The position numbers were made by a program, and so were the translations under genes. The notes beneath the pieces were generated by a model that made no database searches, was not told the DNA's origin, and worked only from the letters and a program-made list of their open reading frames with translations. A stretch of 64,000 nt of DNA from positions 238,783 to 302,782 of the forward strand of contig CAWHII010000004.1 in assembly GCA_963829415.1 (NCBI GenBank). Reading direction: 5' to 3'. Shown here piece after piece: positions 39 to 11,315 of this stretch. The stretch's first letter is position 1, and every line of letters starts with the position of its first letter. This DNA is from an uncultured beta proteobacterium (lineage in GTDB: Bacteria > Pseudomonadota > Gammaproteobacteria > Burkholderiales > Casimicrobiaceae).

Positions 39-1049
39 ATGAACGACTCGCCAACCGGCCGCAGCGACGTGGCGCCGCTGATGGAGCGGATACTCTACGA
101 AGTGAAACGGGTTGTGGTCGGCCAGGACCATTTTCTCGAGCGCGTCATGGTGGCGATACTGGCACAAGGCCACCTGCTCGTCGAAGGAGTGCCGGGTCTG
201 GCCAAGACGCTGACGGTCAAGACGCTCGCGCGCACCATCCACGGCACATTCAAACGCATCCAGTTCACGCCGGATCTCGTGCCGGCAGACCTGGTCGGAA
301 CCCGCATCTACAACCAGAAGACCGGCGAATTCAACACGTCGCTCGGCCCGGTGTTCACCAACCTGCTCCTTGCCGATGAAATCAACCGCGCACCCGCCAA
401 GGTGCAAAGCGCGTTGCTCGAAGTCATGCAGGAATGCCAGGTCACGATCGCCGGGCAAACGCATCGCGTTCCCGAGCCCTTCCTGGTCATGGCGACGCAG
501 AATCCGATCGAGACCGAGGGCACGTATCCGCTGCCGGAGGCACAGGTGGACCGGTTCATGATGAAGGTACTGGTGGGCTACCCCAGCGAGGACGAGGAGT
601 TCGTGATCGTCGAGCGTGTGACCGGCGCGGCGCAGGAAGTAGCCGCCGTCGCCACCACCGACGAACTCGCCGCGTTGCAGCGCGAATGCCGTACGGGCTA
701 CGTGGATCCGTCATTGATGCGCTATGCGGTGCGCCTTGCCAATGCCACACGCAATCCCGAGCGCTTCGGCCTCCCCGACATCGCGCGCTACGTGACCTAC
801 GGTGCAAGTCCGCGCGCTTCCATCCATCTCATCGAGGCCGCGCGCGCACTCGCATTCCTGCGTGGACGCGCGTTTGCATTGCCCGAGGACGTATCGGACC
901 TGGCACCCGACGTTCTGCGCCACCGGCTGTCGCTATCGTACGAAGCGCTGGCCGATTCGATTTCCGCCGACGCATTGATCCTGCGCATTCTGCAACACGT
1001 CCCGCGCCCCGAAAAACCACTCGAAAGCCATGTCCGGATCGACGCCTGA
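39..1049 (+). CDS. moxR: MoxR-family AAA+ ATPase
   Basis: Walker A GVPGLAKT, RIQFTPDLVPADL, Walker B LLADEINRAPAKVQSALLEVMQE, ATQNPIETEGTYPLPEAQVDRF; followed by DUF58 and vWA genes. Confidence 0.93.
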   Translation: MNDSPTGRSDVAPLMERILYEVKRVVVGQDHFLERVMVAILAQGHLLVEGVPGLAKTLTVKTLARTIHGTFKRIQFTPDLVPADLVGTRIYNQKTGEFNTSLGPVFTNLLLADEINRAPAKVQSALLEVMQECQVTIAGQTHRVPEPFLVMATQNPIETEGTYPLPEAQVDRFMMKVLVGYPSEDEEFVIVERVTGAAQEVAAVATTDELAALQRECRTGYVDPSLMRYAVRLANATRNPERFGLPDIARYVTYGASPRASIHLIEAARALAFLRGRAFALPEDVSDLAPDVLRHRLSLSYEALADSISADALILRILQHVPRPEKPLESHVRIDA

Positions 1050-1959
1050 GGCCGTCCTGCGGCGGCTGGAATGGACTGTGATGCGCCGGCTGGACGGCGT
1101 GTTGCACGGCGACTACCGCACGCTGTTTCGCGGACAGGGGCTCGACCTCGCGGATTTGCGCGAATATGTCTACCACGACGACGTGAGGCACATCGACTGG
1201 AACGTCACCGCGCGTCTGCAGACACCCTATGTCCGCGAGTTCAACGAGGAACGCGAAGTTGCCGCATGGTTCCTGCTGGATCTGAGCGCCTCCGTGGACT
1301 TCGGCTCAAGGCAGTTGCGAAAACTGGCGGTCGCAACCGAGTTCGTCGCCGTGCTCGCCCGGATTCTCACGCGGCACGGCAACCGGGTCGGCGCACTTTT
1401 CTATGGCAGCCGCGTGGACGCCGTGATCCCGGCGCGCAGCGGTCGTCGTCAGGTCCTGCACATCCTGCACCGCATGCAGACGCGCACCGCGCCCATGGAC
1501 AACAACGTGACGAATCTGCGCGATCTCCTCGAATTCGCGGGTCGAATGGCGCCGCGGCGCTCGCTCCTGTTCGTGGTCTCCGATTTCATCAGTCTGCCTG
1601 GATGGCCGGAGGCGCTCGCCCGCCTGGCGGAGCGCCATGACGTGGTCGCCGTTCGCCTGTACGACCCGATGGAGATGGACCTGCCCGACCTCGGATTGCT
1701 GGTCATCCAGGATGCCGAATCGGGTGAGCAGCTTTTCGTAGACACGCATGACGTCGGTTTCCGGAAGCGTTTTGCCGCGGCAGCGCACAGACGCGAGGCG
1801 GAGTTGCGCGCGGCCTTTCGCTCGGCGAACGTGGATGCGCTCGAGCTTGCCACCGACGACGATCTGGTCGATGCGATCCTGCGCTTTTCCGACCTGCGCA
1901 AGCGGCGCAGTCGAATGGCGGCGGGTGGCAGCCTGCCCGGTCACCTCGGCGCAGCCTGA
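1030..1959 (+). CDS. DUF58 domain protein (MoxR-associated)
   Basis: G.DLADLREYVYHDDVRHIDWNVTAR motif; overlaps moxR end. Confidence 0.9.
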   Translation: MSGSTPEAVLRRLEWTVMRRLDGVLHGDYRTLFRGQGLDLADLREYVYHDDVRHIDWNVTARLQTPYVREFNEEREVAAWFLLDLSASVDFGSRQLRKLAVATEFVAVLARILTRHGNRVGALFYGSRVDAVIPARSGRRQVLHILHRMQTRTAPMDNNVTNLRDLLEFAGRMAPRRSLLFVVSDFISLPGWPEALARLAERHDVVAVRLYDPMEMDLPDLGLLVIQDAESGEQLFVDTHDVGFRKRFAAAAHRREAELRAAFRSANVDALELATDDDLVDAILRFSDLRKRRSRMAAGGSLPGHLGAA

Positions 1960-3002
1960 TGTCGTTCGCCTGGCCCGAAATGCTCTGGTTGCTGGTGCTC
2001 GTGCCGGTGCTGGCCGGCGCCTACGTCCTGTTGCTGCGACGGAAGAAAAAGACCGCCTTGCGCTTTGCGAGCCTGAGCCTCATCCGTGAATCCCTTGGCG
2101 CCGGCCAGCGCTTCAGACGGCACGTGCCGCCGATGCTGTTCCTGTTGGCACTCACGCTGATGCTCATGGCGATTGCACGACCGACGGCGGTCGTCACCCT
2201 GCCGTCGCAGCACGAAACAGTGATCCTCGCGATGGATGTCTCAGGCAGCATGCGGGCCACGGATGTCAAGCCCAGCCGCATCGCCGCGGCGCAGGAGGCG
2301 GCGCGCGCCTTTGTCGCCGAACAGCCGAAGACCACCCGGATCGGCGTCGTGTCGTTCGCCGCAACCGCTTCGGTGGTGCAATCGCCGACGCACAGCCGCG
2401 AAGACATCCTGGCTGCAATCGAGCGCTTCAACCTGCAGCGCGGAACGGCCGTGGGCAGCGGCATCCTCGTCTCGCTAAAGATGATTTTTCCGGACGTAGA
2501 ATTCGATCTGCGCGCATCCAATCCGCGGGGAAGCACCCAGCGCAGTGCGGCGCTCGACACGTCAAAGGTGCCGGACAAGCCCGCGCCAAAACCGGTTCCA
2601 CCCGGCTCCTATACCGGCGCAGCGATCATCCTGCTCACCGACGGACAGACCACCACCGGGCCTGATCCGATAGAGTCCGCTCGCATGGCCGCCGACCGCG
2701 GTGTACGTGTCTATACGGTCGGCATTGGTACGTCCGGAGGCGAAATCATCGGCGCGGAAGGCTGGTCGATGCGCGTGCGGCTCGACGAGGAATCGCTCAA
2801 GACCATCGCCAACCTGACTCGCGCGGAATATTTTTACGCGGGCACGGCTGCCGACCTGCAGAAGATCTACCAGAACCTCAACACGCGGATCTTCTTCGAG
2901 CAGAAGGAGACCGAAATCACGGCGCTGTTCGCCGCAGCAGCGGCGGTGCTGGCGTTGCTTTCGGCGTTGCTTTCCATGCTGTGGTTCAACCGGATCATGT
3001 AG
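1959..3002 (+). CDS. vWA domain membrane protein (BatA-like N-terminus)
   Basis: N-terminal WPEMLWLL TM segment, MIDAS DVSGS, ILLTDG, C-terminal TM helix. Confidence 0.9.
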   Translation: MSFAWPEMLWLLVLVPVLAGAYVLLLRRKKKTALRFASLSLIRESLGAGQRFRRHVPPMLFLLALTLMLMAIARPTAVVTLPSQHETVILAMDVSGSMRATDVKPSRIAAAQEAARAFVAEQPKTTRIGVVSFAATASVVQSPTHSREDILAAIERFNLQRGTAVGSGILVSLKMIFPDVEFDLRASNPRGSTQRSAALDTSKVPDKPAPKPVPPGSYTGAAIILLTDGQTTTGPDPIESARMAADRGVRVYTVGIGTSGGEIIGAEGWSMRVRLDEESLKTIANLTRAEYFYAGTAADLQKIYQNLNTRIFFEQKETEITALFAAAAAVLALLSALLSMLWFNRIM

Positions 3003-3022: not shown

Positions 3023-3448
3023 CTATTCCAGCATGTCTTCACGCTGCGAGAGATTGGTGCGCAGTTCGTACAAGTCGTCGTCGAGGGCGTCTCTTGCTGA
3101 GACCATGCCAAGCGGCCGGCCGTCTTCGACGACGGGCAGATGCCGGAATCGCCCGACATGCATGATGCGCAGCGCATGCAGGAACGGCTTGTCGGGGTGA
3201 ATGGTCTGCGGCTGCGGCGTCATGACCTGGGACAACCGCGTTGCACCGGGATCGCGGCCTTCCGCGAGCACGCGAAAGAGCGCATCGCGCTCCGTGAAGA
3301 TTCCGCACAGCTGCGGCCCGTCCATGACCAGTAGCGCCCCGACGTTGTGCTCTTTCATCGTGCGCGCCGCTTCGATGACGGTGACCGTTTTCGCCACGGT
3401 AACCGGAGCCCGCCCCTCGACCACCGAGCGCAGGGAACGAATGGACAT
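3023..3448 (-). CDS. CBS-pair protein
   Basis: Two CBS repeats (GALLVMDG..GIFTERD; FRHLPVVEDGRPLGMVSARD); start reassigned to ATG 3448 (MSIRSLR). Confidence 0.88.
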   Translation of the reverse strand: MSIRSLRSVVEGRAPVTVAKTVTVIEAARTMKEHNVGALLVMDGPQLCGIFTERDALFRVLAEGRDPGATRLSQVMTPQPQTIHPDKPFLHALRIMHVGRFRHLPVVEDGRPLGMVSARDALDDDLYELRTNLSQREDMLE

Positions 3449-3662
3449 GATGACCTCTGGGTGACGACCGCAATACGGGTATTGGGCACCCTTGCCGGAA
3501 CGAAAGTCAAGAGCCCGACGCCGGCTGCGCAGCGCCCGATTGACGTCCCGCGCATGACTCGCGTACCGTTGGCGACCGATTGCAACGGACTCTACGGCAA
3601 TCCCGGCGCCGCTGGCGTCGCGCAGCGTGCATTCCAACCCATGCCACAAGGGGCGTTACACC

Positions 3663-4478
3663 ATGCCGATCAGCGGTCATTCTTTTGCCATGGCGGCGGC
3701 CTTCGCGCTCGTCGCTGCAGCCACCGCGTGGCATGACCCCGCGCATGCTGCAAAGATCACGGAGTGCACGAAGGTTGGAATCTGCTATTGCGTGAACGAG
3801 GATCTCAAGCCGACGATTGAGGCCAAGGTCGATCGCTTCCGGCAGATGCTCGCGGAACAGCGCAAGTCCGGGAAGGCCGTCGGATATCTGAGCGTGCCAC
3901 TCACTTCGGCCGGCGGCGGCAACTTCAACGTCAACATGGACGTGGCGGAAGCCACCAAGGCAGCGGTCGAGAAGCGCCTTGGGGCCGAGTTCGTGTTTGT
4001 GCTGAATCCAACCACGCTGGAAGCCGACCTGCCCAAGGGTGCCGGTGCCGACTACATGCTGATGTGGGCGAGCCTGCTCGAAGGCCCGGACGGGCTGGGC
4101 GATTTCGATTTCGCGTATTTCGCGGGGCCGCAGGAATTCGCCCGCTATTTCGGGTTCGACGGCAACAACGACATGGCGAAGCTCGATGCGTACTTCGACA
4201 AGCGCGTCAAATCCGATCCGGACTTCGACAAGGCCGTACAGAATGGGTTGACCAAGGCCGCGTTTCGCAAGTATTACGGATTGCGGGCATCGGCAACGGT
4301 GAGTCGCGGCGCGCACGACGAGTGGAACATCATCCGCGCCGTCAACGAAAGGCGCCGCGCGGACAGCAAGCTGGGCACCGGCAACCAGATCACGATCTTC
4401 TTCGACGGGCTGGGAGTCGCGCCACCCCAGGGAGAATCCGGCGTGTCGGAAGGTTACGTCGGAAAATGTGCGCTCTAA
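3663..4478 (+). CDS. Secreted protein with nucleoside 2-deoxyribosyltransferase/DUF4406-like motifs (putative N-glycosidase)
   Basis: Signal peptide ending PAHA-AK; ordered motifs YLSVPLT, N, VLNP, DYM, DFAYF, SRGAHDE parallel the DUF4406/NDT pattern YIsGPMT..N..VLNP..DYM..D.IY..S.GA..E; start ATG 3663 (or 3690). Confidence 0.55.
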   Translation: MPISGHSFAMAAAFALVAAATAWHDPAHAAKITECTKVGICYCVNEDLKPTIEAKVDRFRQMLAEQRKSGKAVGYLSVPLTSAGGGNFNVNMDVAEATKAAVEKRLGAEFVFVLNPTTLEADLPKGAGADYMLMWASLLEGPDGLGDFDFAYFAGPQEFARYFGFDGNNDMAKLDAYFDKRVKSDPDFDKAVQNGLTKAAFRKYYGLRASATVSRGAHDEWNIIRAVNERRRADSKLGTGNQITIFFDGLGVAPPQGESGVSEGYVGKCAL

Positions 4479-4500
4479 AAGAACACTTCAGGGAGAGACA

Positions 4501-5541
4501 ATGACCATCACCCCACATTGGCTGCGGCGCGGGTCGCGTGTACTTGCAGTCCTGACGTTTGCAGCCGCGTCCTTCGTCGGCGCAATCCCGGCCAGGGCTG
4601 CGGAAACGGTGAACGTCTATTCGATCTGGCCCGAGAACTGGGCGCGTCCGATGTTCGAGGAGTTCGAGAAGGCCACCGGCGTCAAGGTCAACTTCGTGCG
4701 CTTCTCCTCTGGCGAGGCGCTCGCCCGCGTCATCGCGGAGAAGAACAACCCCCGTGTGGACGTGCTGTTCGGCGGTCCCGTCGAGACGTTTGCCGCCGGC
4801 ATCAACGAAGGCCTTTTCGAGTCATACAAGCCACCATCCTTTGCCGTGCTGCCCGCGCGCTTCAAGCAGGCGGATGGGCAATGGGTCGCCATCGCCGACG
4901 ATCCGCTCGTGTTCATGACCAACGAAAAATTCCTCAAGGAGAACGGCCTCAAGGCGCCGGCTTCCTGGAACGACCTGCTGGCGCCGCCCTACAGGAACAT
5001 GCTGCAGATGGCCGACGCGCGCACTTCAGGAACTGCGGTAACGCGCATTTTTTCCATCCTCGAGGTCAACGGCCGTGACGAGACCAAAGCCTTCGACTAC
5101 ATGAAGAAATTGCGGCCGAACGTGCAGCTGTACACGAAGAGCGGTGGCGGAGGCACGCTGCCGGTCGGCCTTGGCCAGGCGGGTGGCGGCATCTTCTTCA
5201 TCGTCGACGCGCTGGACACCAAGGCCAAGGGCTACGACGTTTCGCTCAGTTTCCCCAAGGAAGGCATCGGCACTGCCGCCGAGGGCATAGCCCTCATCAA
5301 GGGCGCGAAGAATCCGGAACTCGGAAAGAAATTGATCGACTGGGCGAGTTCGCCGGCAATGCAGAATCAGTTCGCCAAGTACAAGGTCAACTTCGTCCCG
5401 GCACACCCCGACGTGAAGATCGAACCGAGCCTGGCCGAAGTATTGAAGGGCGCGAAGATCTTTCCCATCGATGCGGAATACGCAGGCGCCAACCGCAAGC
5501 GCATCGTCGACCGGTGGGTCGCGGAAGTGCTGAATCCCTAG
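4501..5541 (+). CDS. ABC transporter substrate-binding protein, Fe3+/sugar-phosphate (AfuA-like) family
   Basis: Signal peptide, RFSSGEALARVIAEKNNPRVDVLFGG, DARTSGTA, YTKSG, FPKEG motifs; RBS GGGAGA before ATG 4501. Confidence 0.85.
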   Translation: MTITPHWLRRGSRVLAVLTFAAASFVGAIPARAAETVNVYSIWPENWARPMFEEFEKATGVKVNFVRFSSGEALARVIAEKNNPRVDVLFGGPVETFAAGINEGLFESYKPPSFAVLPARFKQADGQWVAIADDPLVFMTNEKFLKENGLKAPASWNDLLAPPYRNMLQMADARTSGTAVTRIFSILEVNGRDETKAFDYMKKLRPNVQLYTKSGGGGTLPVGLGQAGGGIFFIVDALDTKAKGYDVSLSFPKEGIGTAAEGIALIKGAKNPELGKKLIDWASSPAMQNQFAKYKVNFVPAHPDVKIEPSLAEVLKGAKIFPIDAEYAGANRKRIVDRWVAEVLNP

Positions 5542-5544
5542 GCA

Positions 5545-7257
5545 TTGCGGGTGGCCAACGTGTCCGGCCGCGCCATGTCGGCCGCATTGCCCGGCGTCAG
5601 GGATCCGGCCCTGCTGATCGCGGTGTTGGCGTTGTGGGCGCTGCTGGCCCTGTTCGTCGTCTATCCATTGACGATGCTGTTCGCGCGGATCCTCACCGAC
5701 CACGGCGCGTTCACGACCACCGGCATCGTGGCGGTATTGACGGACAAGCACCAGATCCGCGCATTCTGGAACAGCCTGCTGCTGGCCCTTCTGGTCGGCA
5801 GCTGGGGTACTGCGCTGGGTTTCCTGTTCGCGTTCACCGCCACGAGAGCCCGCCTGCCGCGCACGCTGCTCTGGGCCATCGACGCCGCAGTGCTGCTGCC
5901 GCTGGTCTCGCCACCGTTCACGACCGCGATCGCGATGATCTTTTCCTTCGGTCCGCGCGGCCTCGTCACCTATCACGTGCTCGGACTCAAGGGCGTCACT
6001 GTCTATGGACTGGCCAGCACCCTGGCCTCCGAGGTCCTGACGTACTTTCCCATCGCATACCTGACGCTGCGGCCACTCCTCACGGCCATTGATTCCAACA
6101 TCGAGGGCATGGCATCGAGCCTGGGCGCATCGCGCTGGCGCGTCTTCCGCACCGTGACGCTGCCGCTGTGCATTCCCGGGCTCGCCAACGCGTTCCTGCT
6201 GCTGTTCGCCGCATCGCTTGCCGATTTCGCCACGCCGCTGATCCTGGCCGGCAACCAGTTCCCGGTCCTGCCGACGCAGGCCTACCTGCAGATCACCGGC
6301 CTGTTCGACCTGCGCGGTGGTGCCGCGCTGTCCTTCGTGCTGCTCGTTCCGGCATTGGCCGTATTTCTGCTGCAGAGGTATTGGGTAAGCCGGCGCTTCT
6401 ATGTCACGATCACCGGAAAGGGCGCCGGACAGGCGCCGTTCGACAGCATGGCGCCGGCCATTCGCACTGCCTTGCTCGCCGCCTGCGCCTGCGTCGCACT
6501 GGTCATCGTGTATTTCTACGCGCTGCTTCTCTACGCGTCCATGGTCGTCGCCCTGGGCGCCAATCACGCATTCACGCTGCAGCACTACCGCGTGATTTTC
6601 ACCGACGGGCTGAAGGCGATTCTCGACACGCTGATCATCGCCGCCTTCGCAATGCCGCTGGGCGGCTTCTACGGCGTGCTGTTGGGTTACCTCGTCACCA
6701 AGAAAGCGTTCATCGGTCGCCGCACGATGGAACTGGTCTCGATGATCAACTATGCATTACCGGGGACGATCGTCGGCATCGCCTACCTGATTGCGTTCAA
6801 CGATCCGCCCATCGAGCTGAGCGGCACGGCGCTGATCATCATCGCCTGCTACGTTTTCCGCTACGGCCCCACGGGCATCCGAGCGACCGTGGCTCAGCTG
6901 CAACAGATCGACAAGAGTCTGGAAGAGGCTTCGCAGGGGCTGGGCGCGGGCAGCAGCACGACATTTCGCCGCATCACGCTGCCGCTCATCCTGCCCGCCT
7001 TCTTTGCCGGACTGGGCGTCGTGTTCATCCGCTCGATGACGGCAATCAGCGCGACGATCTTTCTCGTGTCGATCAGCTGGTCGCTCATCACGGTGAAGAT
7101 CCTCGAAAACATCACCGAGCTATCGCTGGGTCCCGCCGCGGCCTTTTCGGTCCTGGTGGTCGTGATCGTCTTTGTCGTCATCGCCCTAGTCGGCCGCGTG
7201 CTGCGCCTGTTCCACGCGCCCGGCGCGGTGCCGGTGACGAGTCTGCTCGGTGGCTGA
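5545..7257 (+). CDS. ABC transporter permease (FbpB/AfuB type, two TM modules)
   Basis: Multiple TM helices, two EAA-like loops (EGMASSLGAS, EEASQGLGAG). Confidence 0.9.
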   Translation: MRVANVSGRAMSAALPGVRDPALLIAVLALWALLALFVVYPLTMLFARILTDHGAFTTTGIVAVLTDKHQIRAFWNSLLLALLVGSWGTALGFLFAFTATRARLPRTLLWAIDAAVLLPLVSPPFTTAIAMIFSFGPRGLVTYHVLGLKGVTVYGLASTLASEVLTYFPIAYLTLRPLLTAIDSNIEGMASSLGASRWRVFRTVTLPLCIPGLANAFLLLFAASLADFATPLILAGNQFPVLPTQAYLQITGLFDLRGGAALSFVLLVPALAVFLLQRYWVSRRFYVTITGKGAGQAPFDSMAPAIRTALLAACACVALVIVYFYALLLYASMVVALGANHAFTLQHYRVIFTDGLKAILDTLIIAAFAMPLGGFYGVLLGYLVTKKAFIGRRTMELVSMINYALPGTIVGIAYLIAFNDPPIELSGTALIIIACYVFRYGPTGIRATVAQLQQIDKSLEEASQGLGAGSSTTFRRITLPLILPAFFAGLGVVFIRSMTAISATIFLVSISWSLITVKILENITELSLGPAAAFSVLVVVIVFVVIALVGRVLRLFHAPGAVPVTSLLGG

Positions 7258-8359
7258 AGCGATGGCCGCGGAGACCATCGGCGTCCGCATCGACGGCGTA
7301 TCGAAGCGCTTTTCGCATCGCGTGAAGGGGGAGATCTACGCGGCGCGGGACGTGCACCTCGACGTGCACGCTGGCGAATTCCTGACGCTGCTGGGACCTT
7401 CCGGCTGCGGCAAGACAACCACGCTGCGCATGGTCGCCGGCTTCGAGACGCCGGATGCCGGTCGCATTCGCTTCGGCGCGCAGGACGTCACCGAGTTGCC
7501 GGCGAACCAGCGCAACATCGGTTTCGTGTTCCAGAATTATGCGCTGTTCCCGCACTTGTCCGTGTTCGAGAACGTCGCCTACGGACTGCGCGTGCGCGGG
7601 GAGACGGACGACATCGTTCGCAGGAACGTGGGCGATGTCCTCGCACTGGTGGGTCTGGCGGGTTACGAGCATCAGTTTTCGGGTCAGCTCTCGGGCGGCG
7701 AGCAGCAGCGTGTGGCACTCGCCCGCGCGATCGTAATCCGTCCCCGGGTTCTGCTTTTCGACGAACCGCTGTCGAATCTGGATGCCAAGCTGCGGGTCCA
7801 GATGCGCCAGGAGATCCGGGACCTGCAGCGCCGGCTCGCCATCACAACAATCTATGTCACGCACGACCAGGAAGAGGCGATGGCTGTCTCCGACCGGATC
7901 GCCGTGATGAACCTGGGCACCATCGTCCAGGAGGGTACCGCGGAGGACCTGTATCACCGGCCCGCATCCGAGTTCGTGGCCCGGTTCGTCGGCCGCGTCA
8001 ATCTCGTGGCCGGGCGGGTTGAATCTGTCGCAGCGGACCGCCTGCAGATCGCCGCACTCGGAACAGTGATCGACGTGTATTGGCCAGCAAGGGGTTTTGC
8101 CGTGGGCAACGCAGTGCAACTGGTCGTGCGTCCCGAAGCCATCGAATTGTCCGGCGTGATGAGCGGACGACCCGTGGCGACGATCGAGGCGCGAATGTTT
8201 CTCGGGGAAAAGGTCGAGTATTTGCTACGCTGCGGCAGTGAGCAACTGCAGACCGTCCGCTACAATGCCGGTCCCGGCGAGATCCTCGGCGATGGCGCGA
8301 CGGTTTCGTTGCGCTTTGCGGAGGACGCGTTGACCGTACTTCCGCCGGGTAAAGCATGA
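7250..8359 (+). CDS. ABC transporter ATP-binding subunit (FbpC/AfuC/PotA type, TOBE domain)
   Basis: [37 protein letters not shown]. Confidence 0.92.
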
Positions 8360-8865
8360 ACATCCGCGCGCGCCGTGTGATCGTCATCGGCGTGTTCGTG
8401 GCGACGTTGCTGCCGTCCGCGCTCGCCGCGGAGGCGACGCGCGAACTGCACGGCAGCGCCGATGCGTTTGCCGTGCCGGGCGTGGCGCTCGCATGGGGCG
8501 TGCAACGCGGTGCGACGGAGGAGGCGACGCTGGTCGTGGTCCGCGTGGTCACCGATCCTGACGTATACGCCGATATTGCCGTCACCGGCATCGATCCATT
8601 TACCCAGCGCCGGCAGCAGAGGCTCGCAACAACGCCTTCCGCCGGTGGCGTGGAGCTGCGGACGCCGCGCGCGCATTTTGCCGAGTTTCCTCGCACCGAA
8701 TTCTTGTTCTACGCGCCCGGGCCAATGCCGAAATCCCGAACCGCATCGCTGCTCGTCTTCTACGTCGGCGTGCCGGATAGCACGCCCGAATTCGTCGACG
8801 CAGCAAAGCTCGACGCCTATCTCAGCGCGCGCATTGCGCAATTGCGCGGGGGCAAGCTACCGTGA
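8356..8865 (+). CDS. Exported hypothetical protein in the ABC-deoC operon
   Basis: Hydrophobic N-terminus with AxA site; 4-bp overlaps with both neighbours. Confidence 0.65.
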   Translation: MNIRARRVIVIGVFVATLLPSALAAEATRELHGSADAFAVPGVALAWGVQRGATEEATLVVVRVVTDPDVYADIAVTGIDPFTQRRQQRLATTPSAGGVELRTPRAHFAEFPRTEFLFYAPGPMPKSRTASLLVFYVGVPDSTPEFVDAAKLDAYLSARIAQLRGGKLP

Positions 8866-9578
8866 CACGCACTGAATTCGCCCGACTGCTCGACCACTCG
8901 GTGCTCAAACCCGAGGCGACCGAGGCCGACCTCCTTGCGGGCGCGGAGGTCGTCGCTGCCTGGAACATCGGCTTCTACTGCGTGCAGCCGAGCTGGATCA
9001 AGCTCGCCTGCGCTGCCCTTGCGGACACTGATGCCACAGTGGTAACGGTCATCGGCTTCCCACATGGCTGCGACGCAATGGAAGTGAAGGTGCGGGCTGC
9101 GGCCATCGCGGTCGCCGAAGGCGCCGGGGAAGTCGACATGGTGCAGAACTTCGGTCTGCTCAGGAGCGGCCGCGCGAACCTCGTTGCAGCGGAGATCGAA
9201 GCGGTGGTCCGCGCAATCCCGGGAATCCCGGTCAAGGTCATCCTGGAAACAGCGACGCTTACGTTCAGCGAGAAGAAGCTTGCATCGCGAATCGCCTGCG
9301 ATGCCGGCGCTGCATTCCTCAAGACGTCCACGGGATTCCACCCCGGCGGCGGTGCAACGATTGCCGATGTTGCCCTGCTGCGCGAAGTCGCCGGGCAGCG
9401 CGTCGGCGTCAAAGCGTCGGGCGGGATTCGAACGCTTGCCGACGCGCAGGCAATGCTCGATGCCGGCGCCAATCGCGTCGGAACGTCGGCCAGTGCGTCG
9501 ATCCTCGCGGCAATCGACCCCACCGACCAAGGTCGCGCCAGCGCCACCCCCCGGGAACGAAAATCGAAGCCTGGTTGA
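8862..9578 (+). CDS. deoC: Deoxyribose-phosphate aldolase
   Basis: LDHSVLKPEAT, TVIGFPHG, EVDMV, VKVILET, FLKTSTGF, GVKASGGIRT, RVGTS. Confidence 0.93.
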   Translation: MTRTEFARLLDHSVLKPEATEADLLAGAEVVAAWNIGFYCVQPSWIKLACAALADTDATVVTVIGFPHGCDAMEVKVRAAAIAVAEGAGEVDMVQNFGLLRSGRANLVAAEIEAVVRAIPGIPVKVILETATLTFSEKKLASRIACDAGAAFLKTSTGFHPGGGATIADVALLREVAGQRVGVKASGGIRTLADAQAMLDAGANRVGTSASASILAAIDPTDQGRASATPRERKSKPG

Positions 9579-9628
9579 ATTTGCGCCGCGGCGAGCCTAG
9601 GATAGGCGGCATCCATCAGGAGGCAATC

Positions 9629-10006
9629 ATGAGAGCAGGACTGTTTGGTCTGATTTTCGTCGGTGCGTCGTGCATTGCCGCTGCGGGCCCCGCGCATGCG
9701 ATCATCTGCTATGTCATCTACGATCGCAGCGACAACATCATCTACCAGAGCACCTACCCGCCGCTGGACATGAGCAACGCGGGCTACCCCCAGCGCGAGG
9801 CGTTGCGCGCACGGGGACAGCACCTGACGTTTGGCGACGTCCCGAAATGCCCCACGGTCGTGTTCCTGACCGGGACGGGCGGCAGCAGCGATCTCCGCGT
9901 GGATGAGGTCGTGGCAGGGATGTCGGCGCGCAACATTGCCGGAACTACGCCCAACGCAACAATGGTTGAAACCCCGGCCGGAGCGCAAGTGGGCCCCGCC
10001 AGGTAG
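9629..10006 (+). CDS. Secreted hypothetical protein
   Basis: Signal peptide (PAHA-IIC), two Cys in mature region, RBS AGGAGG upstream. Confidence 0.7.
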   Translation: MRAGLFGLIFVGASCIAAAGPAHAIICYVIYDRSDNIIYQSTYPPLDMSNAGYPQREALRARGQHLTFGDVPKCPTVVFLTGTGGSSDLRVDEVVAGMSARNIAGTTPNATMVETPAGAQVGPAR

Positions 10007-10057: not shown

Positions 10058-10372
10058 CTAGCCCAGACGAGCGCGCAATGCCCGCAGTTCCGCTTCCAGT
10101 GCCTCGACGCGTTGCGCGTAGCGCAGCACGACGGACAGACTGTGCGCATCGAGTTCGAAATCCCTGCGCAGGCGCCCGGCGGTTCGCGCGACGACGACAT
10201 AGGACGCAGTGAAGGTCCATGCCGCCGCCGCCGGATCGACCGGCGCCAGCGCGCCATAGTCCACGAGGGCGCGCAATTCCTCCGCCGGAAGGTCGGAAAG
10301 CTCGACCAGCTGGTCCAGCGTCAGCACGCCGCGCTCGTCCAGCGACACCGCTTCCGCGATTTCAAGGTTCAT
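10058..10372 (-). CDS. cbpM: Chaperone modulator CbpM
   Basis: [18 protein letters not shown], coiled-coil C-terminus; directly downstream of cbpA; start ATG 10372. Confidence 0.82.
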
Positions 10373-11315
10373 GAGTGGCCTCCCGCTCGAAATGAGCCCG
10401 GGGATTGAACGTCGACGATTCGGCAAGTTGACGGAACAGCGCTCGCTGCGGATCGTCCAGCACGGTGGGCACGGCAATCTGCACGATGGCAAACAGGTTC
10501 CCCGCGACTCCGTCGGGACGGGCGAGTCCGCGTCCGCTCAGGCGCAACTGTTGTCCTGCCCGCGTCCCCGCCGGCACCTTCAGTTTCACGGGTCCGGCGG
10601 GCGTCGGCAGCTCGATGCTGGCACCGAGCACTGCTTCCCAGGGCGCCAGCGGAAGATCCACGAACAGATCGCGGCCGTCCGCCCGAAACAGCTTGTGGGG
10701 TGTCACCGCAATGTCGAGATAGAGGTCGCCCGTGCGGCCGCCGCGCAGACCATGACCCCCCTTGCCCGGCACGCGGAGCTTCTGGCCGTCCGTTACGCCG
10801 CGCGGAATACGCACGGTCACGAGACGCGGCACGCGATGCGCGACACCGTTCTCATCGAATTCCGGAACGCTCAAGTCCAACTGGACCTCGGTGCCATGGA
10901 ACGCCTGTTCGAGGGTCAGGCGTACCGCCGCCTCATAGTCACGGCCGGCGACGGGCTTGTTCGGATCGGCGCGACGGCGGAATCCTTCGCCGCGGCCGAA
11001 CCCGGCAAAGAGGTCGGCGAGATCGACATCGTCGAAGGATGACTGTCCACGTGCAAAGTGCTGTTCCCAGTCCGGCGGCGGGCGGAATTCCTGTCCCGGC
11101 GCATGGCTTCCCAGCTGGTCGTACGCCGCGCGCTTCTCGGGGTCCTTCAGCGTTTCGTAGGCTTCGGCCATCGCCTTGAATTTTTCCTCCGCGTTCGGCT
11201 CCTTGGAGACATCGGGATGAAACTTGCGGGCAAGCTTGCGATAGGCCTTCTTGATGCCGTCCGGACTGGCACTCTTGTCGACGCCGAGTATTGCGTAGTA
11301 GTCCTTGTATTTCAT
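10362..11315 (-). CDS. cbpA: DnaJ-class protein CbpA (J domain plus C-terminal domain, no Zn finger)
   Basis: [15 protein letters not shown] motif, [14 protein letters not shown]. Confidence 0.92.

Follow-up and report, generated by a model that had tools for sequence, protein, structure and literature searches.

We analyzed a 64,000-nucleotide stretch of DNA from an uncultured soil betaproteobacterium of the Casimicrobiaceae (hereafter the window; GenBank assembly GCA_963829415.1, contig CAWHII010000004.1, positions 238,783 to 302,782) and found that seven tightly packed, co-oriented open reading frames (ORFs) at 3663-10006 of its + strand join an ABC importer to the aldolase gene deoC. In order, they encode a secreted protein of an undescribed family (g1), a periplasmic substrate-binding protein (SBP), a fused permease, an ABC ATPase, a second secreted protein (g5), DeoC and a small secreted protein (g7). 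We consider it likely, from sequence and gene neighborhood, that this transporter imports 2-deoxyribose-5-phosphate (dR5P). We further propose that the operon uses the sugar-phosphate part of extracellular (deoxy)nucleotides, with g1 acting as a periplasmic N-glycosidase that would feed the transporter, and we give this full chain about an even chance of being right.

The strongest evidence on the cargo comes from the way in which the transporter is joined to deoC in related genomes. We searched 121 genomes of the family for g1, deoC and g5, the last serving as a marker of the transporter block; these genomes are mutually related, and all of our results are computational. We found g5 in 38 genomes, deoC in 37 and both in 34 (odds ratio ~227, phylogeny ignored). 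The arrangement of the window, with the start of deoC no more than a few tens of bases past g5, is seen in 24 genomes (type A). Genus g203 and genome G316 have a second layout, where a different deoC is encoded on the opposite strand at a distance of 4-6 kb (type B). In the type B locus that we read (genome G202, locus L082), a DeoR-family regulator, a 327-amino-acid DeoC and an aldehyde dehydrogenase are encoded on one strand, and divergent from them are an SBP 79% identical to that of the window, a permease, an ATPase and a g5-like gene. The type B DeoC is only 33% identical to the window DeoC and is non-orthologous to it. The joining of transporter and deoC therefore occurs in two independent layouts, and the linkage to deoC, whose conservation the first-pass annotation of this DNA had proposed to check, recurs in 34 of the 38 genomes with g5. 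Because two non-orthologous deoC genes have been recruited to one transporter, the imported compound would appear to be dR5P or to yield it directly. The aldehyde dehydrogenase of type B is the enzyme that disposes of acetaldehyde, and the regulator is a DeoR-type sensor; our reading of this layout leans on dR5P being the classical inducer of E. coli DeoR.

Some transporter blocks in the family have other company or show possible damage. Beside blocks without an adjacent deoC we observed genes for a NUDIX hydrolase, HAD-type phosphatases, an MFS transporter and a Na/Pi cotransporter-PhoU fusion (L074 5103-6794 and 12523-13143; L081 7030-8910; L082 11296-12024), and for all of these variable partners a role in the metabolism of nucleotides, sugar phosphates or phosphate is plausible. 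The deoC of genome G208 (L069, G208:C15 1989-2652) is split over two frames, by a frameshift or an assembly error, and the g5 of genome G316 (G316:C20:33519-33986) carries an in-frame TAG; decay of the module is possible in both.

The SBP (4501-5541, + strand, in a frame open from GTG 4468) is a candidate (deoxy)pentose-5-phosphate binder. Its family hits in Pfam and NCBIfam are of the SBP_bac_1/6/8/11 type. Compared with solved structures, it matched AfuA (4R72) with an E value of 2.9e-41 and 36% identity and P5PA (6WCE) with 5.6e-39, while the 2-aminoethylphosphonate (2-AEP) binder 4R6Y gave 2.9e-15 and FbpA-type binders 1e-12. These matches place the protein in the AfuA/P5PA clade of the cluster-D organophosphate binders. 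We transferred the published ligand contacts of AfuA and P5PA (PMC4546632, PMC8427247) through a HMMER alignment, with a numbering offset that reproduces all 17 AfuA residues. Eight of the ten phosphate-pocket positions are identical (S37, G38, G59, S148, G149, T150, S184 and G185 in AfuA numbering), the two changes being G36 to S and T60 to P. The SSG, TSGT and KSG motifs pointed out in the first-pass annotation align exactly with AfuA Ser37-Gly38, Ser148-Gly149-Thr150 and Ser184-Gly185, and its description of the protein as belonging to a sugar-phosphate-type importer agrees with an AfuA/P5PA-like SBP whose phosphate pocket is intact. In the ring pocket only two of seven positions are identical (F203 and D206), the others having changed (Y103A, I186G, H205V, E229A, Q269P), and the equivalents of P5PA Y103 and H203 are Ala and Val. 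The mapped positions are invariant across 28 sequences, namely the window SBP and 27 orthologs.

These replacements fall on residues that define specificity in the relatives. Each of H205, D206 and E229 of AfuA is essential for binding of glucose-6-phosphate (G6P; PMC4546632), and AfuA and P5PA have different ligands at 54% identity (PMC8427247). Since the phosphate pocket is kept and the ring pocket replaced, the SBP is predicted to bind an organophosphate, and its cargo should differ from both hexose-6-phosphate and pyridoxal-5'-phosphate (PLP); we predict a preference for phosphate esters whose other moiety is small and carries fewer hydroxyl groups. The transporter should not be filed as a hexose-phosphate importer, because ring residues that define that specificity are replaced. 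Its remaining parts are a fused permease (5545-7257, + strand) with two BPD_transp_1 domains in Pfam, an architecture of the AfuB/FbpB type, and an ATPase (7250-8359, + strand) with an ABC_tran domain (E 1e-34) and a C-terminal TOBE_2 domain (E 9e-10).

The window deoC (8862-9578, + strand) encodes an aldolase of the short, 238-amino-acid type. DeoC scored 221.2 bits with TIGR00126, whose curated cut-off is 117.3, and aligned with solved deoxyribose-phosphate aldolases (DERAs; 8QPS) with an E value of 7e-54, including the catalytic EVDMV, VKVILE, FLKTSTGF and VKASGGIR motifs; on these sequence criteria it is a genuine DERA (EC 4.1.2.4) and otherwise ordinary. This is the sole deoC of the genome, which is 94% complete. 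Because the genome yielded no deoB (phosphopentomutase), no pyrimidine-nucleoside phosphorylase above cut-off and no nucleoside 2-deoxyribosyltransferase (NDT) of family PF05014, the classical nucleoside route to dR5P is apparently missing from it. Two PNP_UDP_1 genes are present elsewhere in the genome. Within the locus, Pfam and NCBIfam scans confirmed the earlier observation that deoA, deoB, deoD and a sugar kinase are lacking.

The first gene of the cluster, g1 (3663-4478, + strand), encodes a secreted 271-amino-acid protein that we regard as a candidate periplasmic (deoxy)nucleotide N-glycosidase. The protein has a signal peptide ending AHA, followed by AK, and four Cys residues. A search gave 960 matches among 90%-identity clusters, and at 50% identity the family forms 348 clusters; it occurs in Casimicrobiaceae, Bradyrhizobium and other soil bacteria, and is named in none of the sources that we searched. 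The invariant residues are R60, S77, P79, G85, G107, P116, Y131, D149, Y205, S214, D219, E220, W221, N222, N228 and R231, with Y75 and H218 nearly so.

Two kinds of evidence tie g1 to nucleases. First, g1 is fused with an S1/P1 nuclease domain (PF02265) in three unrelated proteins and in both domain orders (P0125, P0174 and P0244, each a singleton cluster). The signal peptide of g1 is missing from P0125 and P0174, its place being taken by the nuclease and the nuclease's own signal peptide, and the junction falls exactly at the start of mature g1, which in P0125 is the conserved Cys motif; these fusions are genuine and not missed stop codons. Second, each of the four Bradyrhizobium loci has g1 set among genes for nucleases, in the order Endonuclease_NS, g1, S1-P1 and DUF3616 in L052 and L053, in the order S1-P1, PLD-like, S1-P1 and g1 in L057, and with S1-P1 directly upstream of g1 in L050. 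The fusions and these neighborhoods place g1 downstream of nucleic-acid cleavage, as the proposed pathway needs.

The Bradyrhizobium clusters of secreted nucleases are compact (L057 4967-12541, L052 7889-12616) and include unknown genes, among them a 393-amino-acid ORF and DUF3616. A phage-type integrase next to the L057 cluster hints that this is a mobile "nucleic-acid digestion" island. Other fusions (P0192, P0198, P0252, P0294) join the g1 domain to HEAT repeats that span about 600 residues, to long stretches of unknown or membrane character and, in precomputed Pfam annotation, to a MOSC domain. The most divergent g1 relatives, P0137 (L072) and P0308 (L080), at 38-41% identity, lie among SIR2_2, UvrD-helicase/Peptidase_M78 and CYTH genes and are each preceded by a conserved unknown gene. 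This context is defense-island-like, and some branches of the g1 family may act in phage defense, not nutrition.

The link between g1 and the transporter is frequent and not obligatory. A transporter or deoC is within reach in 35 of 61 g1-centered loci, and g1 stands in several arrangements relative to the transporter: upstream and co-oriented, convergent after deoC, downstream or a few kb off and, outside that set, convergent after g5 in loci without deoC. Also outside that set is L086, where g1 is only 35% identical to that of the window and is followed after 24 bp by the gene for an SBP of 84% identity with the same pocket. Within the family sample, g1 and g5 occur together in 29 of the 121 genomes, g5 without g1 in 9 and g1 without g5 in 14 (odds ratio ~16), and in 13 of the 29 with both, g1 is within 12 kb of the transporter, for which the chance expectation is ~0.6% per genome. 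The recurrent linkage that the first-pass annotation proposed to look for is therefore found for transporter and deoC and in part for g1 and transporter, some loci of the latter kind being without deoC. Unlinked g1 copies in Casimicrobiaceae showed no recurring partner, their neighbors including acyl-CoA synthetase, MBL-rhodanese, histidine kinase and other genes.

To our knowledge, all characterized members of the NDT-like superfamily cleave N-glycosidic bonds, and several features of g1 suggest that it is a remote relative of them. An AlphaFold2 model built on a 51-sequence alignment (mean predicted local distance difference test score, pLDDT, 92.8) shows a core of alternating beta and alpha elements (strands 72-77, 111-114, 150-153 and 244-247), an N-terminal Cys hairpin and a helical insertion at ~156-213. 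When we searched the viral library BFVD with this model, NDT-like phage proteins led the list with E values of 0.03-0.5; NDT-annotated proteins appeared at ranks 2, 3, 9 and 48 and DUF7768 at rank 4, all of them weak matches (E 0.03-7, template modeling (TM) score up to 0.47, Foldseek probability up to 0.97); the rank 2 protein, Enc34 ORF42, is itself a weak DUF7768/DUF1937/DUF4406 match. We compared g1 with a profile of the Enc34 phage NDT-like protein and six homologs, a search for DUF4406 in 201 genomes of the class having given one match and been abandoned as a source. With relaxed thresholds, hhalign placed five motifs in colinear order while skipping the insertion (VGYLSVP/LIYIAGP, VFVLNP/FPVTPH, DFDFAYF/CDGVLLT, SRGAHDEW/SQGTWVEW and the last strand). 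At the level of motifs, g1 Y75, D149, S214 and E220 match Y8, D87, S100 and E106 of the Enc34 protein in order and spacing. Again at motif level, the six-residue spacing from S214 to E220 equals that from S98 to E104 in DNPH1, with D149 at the place of D80. In human DNPH1, S98 binds phosphate, E104 is the nucleophile and D80 the acid (PMC10603095). We consider remote membership of g1 in the NDT-like superfamily probable but unproven, and an N-glycosidase activity would fit the motifs and the top fold matches. A PDB profile search with the g1 alignment returned only designed Kelch-like "SAKe" proteins, through a repeated 15-residue DEW..N.RR string, and we rejected these hits as spurious.

In the pathway that we propose, nucleases would release (deoxy)nucleoside 5'-monophosphates ((d)NMPs), in the case of this genome probably nucleases of other organisms, and the nucleotides would reach the periplasm. 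There, secreted g1 would cleave the N-glycosidic bond by means of its invariant Glu (in S-x-G-x-x-x-E), leaving the base and dR5P, or perhaps ribose-5-phosphate. The AfuA-clade SBP would capture the pentose phosphate, the fused permease and ATPase would import it still phosphorylated, and DeoC would split dR5P into glyceraldehyde-3-phosphate and acetaldehyde. Loci without deoC might import ribose-5-phosphate, for which no dedicated enzyme is needed, or might use a deoC elsewhere in the genome. S1/P1-type nucleases, with which g1 is associated, yield 5'-mononucleotides. We favor cleavage by g1, import and DeoC as the simplest chain because of the nuclease tie of g1, the SBP pocket, the need of DeoC for dR5P and a search of the genome that found no cytoplasmic route to dR5P. 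Cleavage of dNMPs, uptake of the phosphorylated sugar and DeoC were also the sequence of steps suggested in the first-pass annotation; we find it plausible, with the part from transporter to DeoC supported and the glycosidase role of g1 predicted. Somewhat more tentatively, and with slightly less than an even chance, we suggest that g1 is a new secreted branch of the NDT/DNPH1 group in a route from nuclease to periplasmic N-glycosidase, (d)R5P import and then DeoC or the pentose-phosphate pathway, and, as one joint claim with this, that soil Proteobacteria may by such a route harvest carbon and phosphorus from environmental DNA and RNA without kinase, mutase or phosphorylase.

Several observations weigh against this pathway. 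We found no member of the S1/P1, Endonuclease_NS or Endonuclease_I families in this genome, which would make the route dependent on nucleotides from other organisms, and the route as proposed names no passage for nucleotides across the outer membrane. AfuA showed no binding of ribose-5-phosphate (PMC4546632). In a Foldseek search of the g1 model against the PDB the best E value was 0.19, with TM scores of ~0.1-0.2, and hhalign of g1 with the NDT-like phage family gave a probability of 0.9-1.3%, which is not significant, the standard alignment covering only the first two motifs. In 16 of the 29 genomes with both, g1 and the transporter are on different contigs or far apart, so the two are separable, and much of their adjacency could be inherited synteny in one shuffled family. 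In a third layout (type C; L074, L081, L087), SBP, permease, ATPase and g5 are convergent with g1 and there is no deoC within about 7 kb, and deoC is not an obligatory partner. On g1 itself, neither the Pfam scan of 51 family members at E up to 10 (no NDT-type family among PF05014, PF14359, PF24963 and PF09152, and none recurrent) nor the PHROG scan (one of 51 members matching phrog_355, an NDT family, at E 0.036, and no recurrent family) provided a family link, and the Enc34-based profile had no sequence link to the PDB either. The assignment of g1 to the NDT/Rcl type in the first-pass annotation is in this respect only weakly borne out: ranks among viral folds and colinear motifs speak for it, and a significant hidden Markov model or PDB fold match was not obtained.

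Of the other explanations, the one that survives best keeps the transporter as a supplier of dR5P or another pentose phosphate for DeoC and takes g1 to be something other than an N-glycosidase, such as a phosphodiesterase, a nucleotidase, a base or nucleotide binder or a mere syntenic neighbor, with dR5P coming from elsewhere. It draws on the finding that the transporter is linked more strongly to deoC (34/38) than to g1 (13/29 within 12 kb), on the distance of 216 kb that separates g1 from the transporter in type B loci, on the lack of significant NDT homology and on the nature of the fusions, which say only that g1 acts with nucleases and not which reaction it catalyzes. Yet g1 adjoins the transporter through several rearrangements and at 35-97% identity, including at loci without deoC, and a phosphatase would destroy the very phosphate group for which the SBP pocket is built. 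The series of Y, D and SxGxxxE together with the NDT-like proteins among the top fold matches fits a glycosidase, and we know of no other abundant source of free dR5P, which we also count against this explanation. On balance we regard it as doubtful.

A further possibility, which we consider unlikely, is that the ABC system imports another organophosphate, such as whole (d)NMPs, 2-AEP, a hexose or heptose phosphate or PLP, with DeoC acting on a product formed in the cytoplasm or linked for another reason. The closest NCBIfam models of the transporter are indeed PhnS2, PhnU2 and PhnT2, of a putative 2-AEP system, with PhnU2 the best model for the permease. All three scored far below their cut-offs, however (PhnS2 with 171.1 bits on the SBP against 392.75, and the other two with 269.3 against 593.25 and 363.3 against 457.7 bits), we found no phnW, phnX or other phosphonate catabolic gene in the locus, and the SBP is much closer to AfuA (E 3e-41) than to the 2-AEP binder 4R6Y (3e-15). 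The ligand of this clade is not readable from sequence, given that AfuA and P5PA differ in cargo at 54% identity (PMC8427247), and type C loci have NUDIX or HAD/MFS genes in place of deoC, both of which leave room for another cargo. Against hexose phosphates and PLP in particular stands the replacement of AfuA H205 and E229 and of P5PA Y103 and H203. Import of whole dNMPs would need a cytoplasmic N-glycosidase or deoB to serve DeoC, and neither was found in the genome, and the layout of DeoR, DeoC and aldehyde dehydrogenase in type B points to deoxyribose phosphate.

That the system imports iron(III), thiamine or polyamines, as routine annotation of such SBPs would have it, with deoC a chance neighbor, is very improbable, and the iron reading is essentially excluded: the weak matches to FbpA, SfuA, PotD and thiamine binders are at least 25 orders of magnitude weaker than those to AfuA and P5PA, the organophosphate pocket is conserved, and the linkage of deoC recurs across 34 of the 38 genomes with g5, in two layouts that are independent of each other.

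Returning to the proposed chain of g1, dR5P import and DeoC, what would be new is the logic of a pathway that combines known kinds of components, of which we found no description; our literature search turned up neither a described importer of dR5P nor a nucleotide N-glycosidase of the periplasm. In soil, extracellular DNA amounts to a large store of carbon and phosphorus, and in the known bacterial routes nucleotides are dephosphorylated outside the cell and nucleosides or phosphate are taken up. Shewanella and Vibrio, for example, use extracellular DNA through secreted nucleases and periplasmic nucleotidases. The proposed route likewise starts from nucleotides made by nucleases outside the cytoplasm, but where these organisms dephosphorylate and import nucleosides or phosphate, it would remove the base and keep the phosphate. 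In the classical deo regulon of E. coli, deoCABD is accompanied by DeoR. The present locus shares with it DeoC as the terminal enzyme, joined in type B relatives by a regulator of the DeoR family and an aldehyde dehydrogenase, and differs in having no nucleoside phosphorylase, phosphopentomutase or nucleoside transporter, so that the sugar would enter as the 5-phosphate. If the pathway is correct, one ATP would be saved per sugar and phosphate and carbon would be captured together. It would also explain the lone deoC of some genomes without deoA, deoB and deoD and would give a function to an uncharacterized secreted family of ~350 clusters at 50% identity. For the AfuA/P5PA transporter clade, to which the label of iron transporter is still commonly given, it would mean a third class of ligand.

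Among described systems, AfuABC of Actinobacillus pleuropneumoniae and Citrobacter rodentium is an ABC importer of hexose and heptose phosphates, namely G6P, fructose-6-phosphate and sedoheptulose-7-phosphate (PMC4546632). It resembles the window transporter in its cluster-D SBP with the same phosphate motifs and in its fused two-domain permease and single ATPase, and it imports a phosphorylated sugar; unlike it, the window SBP has H205 changed to V and E229 to A, along with Y103, I186 and Q269, and the window operon adds g5, DeoC and g1. P5PAB, a PLP importer (6WCE) reported only in Pasteurellaceae (PMC8427247), belongs to the same clade, and P5PA shows that this clade can vary the moiety of its cargo while keeping the phosphate pocket; its PLP-contacting Y103 and H203 are not kept in the window SBP. 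DNPH1/Rcl, MilB/BcmB and the nucleoside 2-deoxyribosyltransferases make up the NDT superfamily (PMC10603095). With this group g1 would share the conversion of a dNMP to base and dR5P by means of a Glu, and at motif level it shows the same order of a Tyr in strand 1, an Asp in strand 3 and S-x-G-x-x-x-E; unlike its members it has a helical insertion of ~55 residues and an N-terminal Cys hairpin, is secreted and not cytoplasmic, and lacks a significant sequence or PDB fold match to them. SPU bacterial microcompartments have DERA as a signature enzyme, and a DERA-centered use of DNA-derived dR5P has been proposed for them (PMC11585597). In contrast to these, the present locus has no shell proteins, and the main text of that paper never mentions "transporter" (PMC11585597).

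The seven genes most likely form one operon, with co-transcription predicted from their spacing. Across the ORF list of the window, neighboring frames of the cluster overlap by 4-11 bp or are separated by 3-50 bp. The junction of g1 and SBP is an 11-bp overlap if the SBP starts at GTG 4468 or a 22-bp gap if it starts at ATG 4501, the gap between SBP and permease is 3 bp, permease and ATPase overlap by 8 bp, and the overlaps of ATPase with g5 and of g5 with deoC are ATGA and GTGA. Six co-oriented genes at 3663-9578, overlapping or with gaps of 22 bp or less, had been noted before, and the ORF list bears this out. The cluster does not end with deoC, as had been stated, since g7 follows in the same orientation up to 10006; g5, a constant member of the transporter block, had been overlooked along with it. 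The operon promoter presumably lies within the intergenic region at 3449-3662, between a divergent CBS-pair gene and g1, where an AAGGGG is found 9-14 nt 5' of ATG 3663; a sigma-70 consensus scan of the region 5' of g1 gave no match. Terminator-like hairpins inside the cluster were not more frequent than in shuffled sequence. The closest relatives are metagenome-assembled genomes labeled Casimicrobiaceae or Betaproteobacteria.

Like g1, both g5 and g7 have a Sec-type signal peptide, and none of the three has a family match in Pfam or NCBIfam. The g5 gene (8356-8865, + strand) comes after the ATPase gene at all loci that we read and in the adjacent genomes of the 121-genome sample, and its homologs, present in 38 of the 121 family genomes, were found in none of ~295 genomes of other families of the order. 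It encodes a secreted 169-amino-acid protein that is predicted to be a beta-sandwich: the AlphaFold2 model (pLDDT 88.2) is an immunoglobulin-like sandwich with a C-terminal helix, and its best PDB fold match is the DUF2027 structure 2huh (E 6e-3), other matches being generic immunoglobulin-like sandwiches. Invariant residues are H32, G33, D36, W47, R63, T114, V134, G138, P140, D141 and R159. A fusion of ATPase and g5, considered because of long open frames, was ruled out in L069, where the two overlap by ATGA in different frames. The last gene, g7 (9629-10006, + strand, frame open from TTG 9575), encodes a small secreted protein with a conserved core of ~75 amino acids, two invariant Cys residues and a low-complexity tail, for which Pfam gave no match. 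It is conserved after deoC in L001 and L002 and directly follows g1 in L018, L020, L025, L046 and L051; g7 appears to travel with g1 when g1 is apart from the transporter, and is predicted to be a small disulfide-containing protein.

The surroundings of the operon are partly conserved as well. Directly upstream, at 39-3002 on the + strand, is an operon of a MoxR AAA ATPase, a DUF58 protein and a VWA (BatA-like) membrane protein. This trio shifts position in relatives and lies between g1-g7 and the SBP gene in L018, L025, L046 and L051. A stand-alone CBS-pair protein of 141 amino acids is encoded at 3023-3448 on the - strand, divergent from g1, and its gene is also directly upstream of g1 across several arrangement types (L001, L002, L018, L019, L021, L025, L046 and L051); the two genes may form a conserved divergent pair, or their proximity may reflect nothing more than synteny. 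Downstream and convergent with the operon, at 10058-11315 on the - strand, are a DnaJ-like (CbpA-type) gene and a MerR_2 (CbpM-like) gene, a pair that is also found near a distant g1 homolog in L079.

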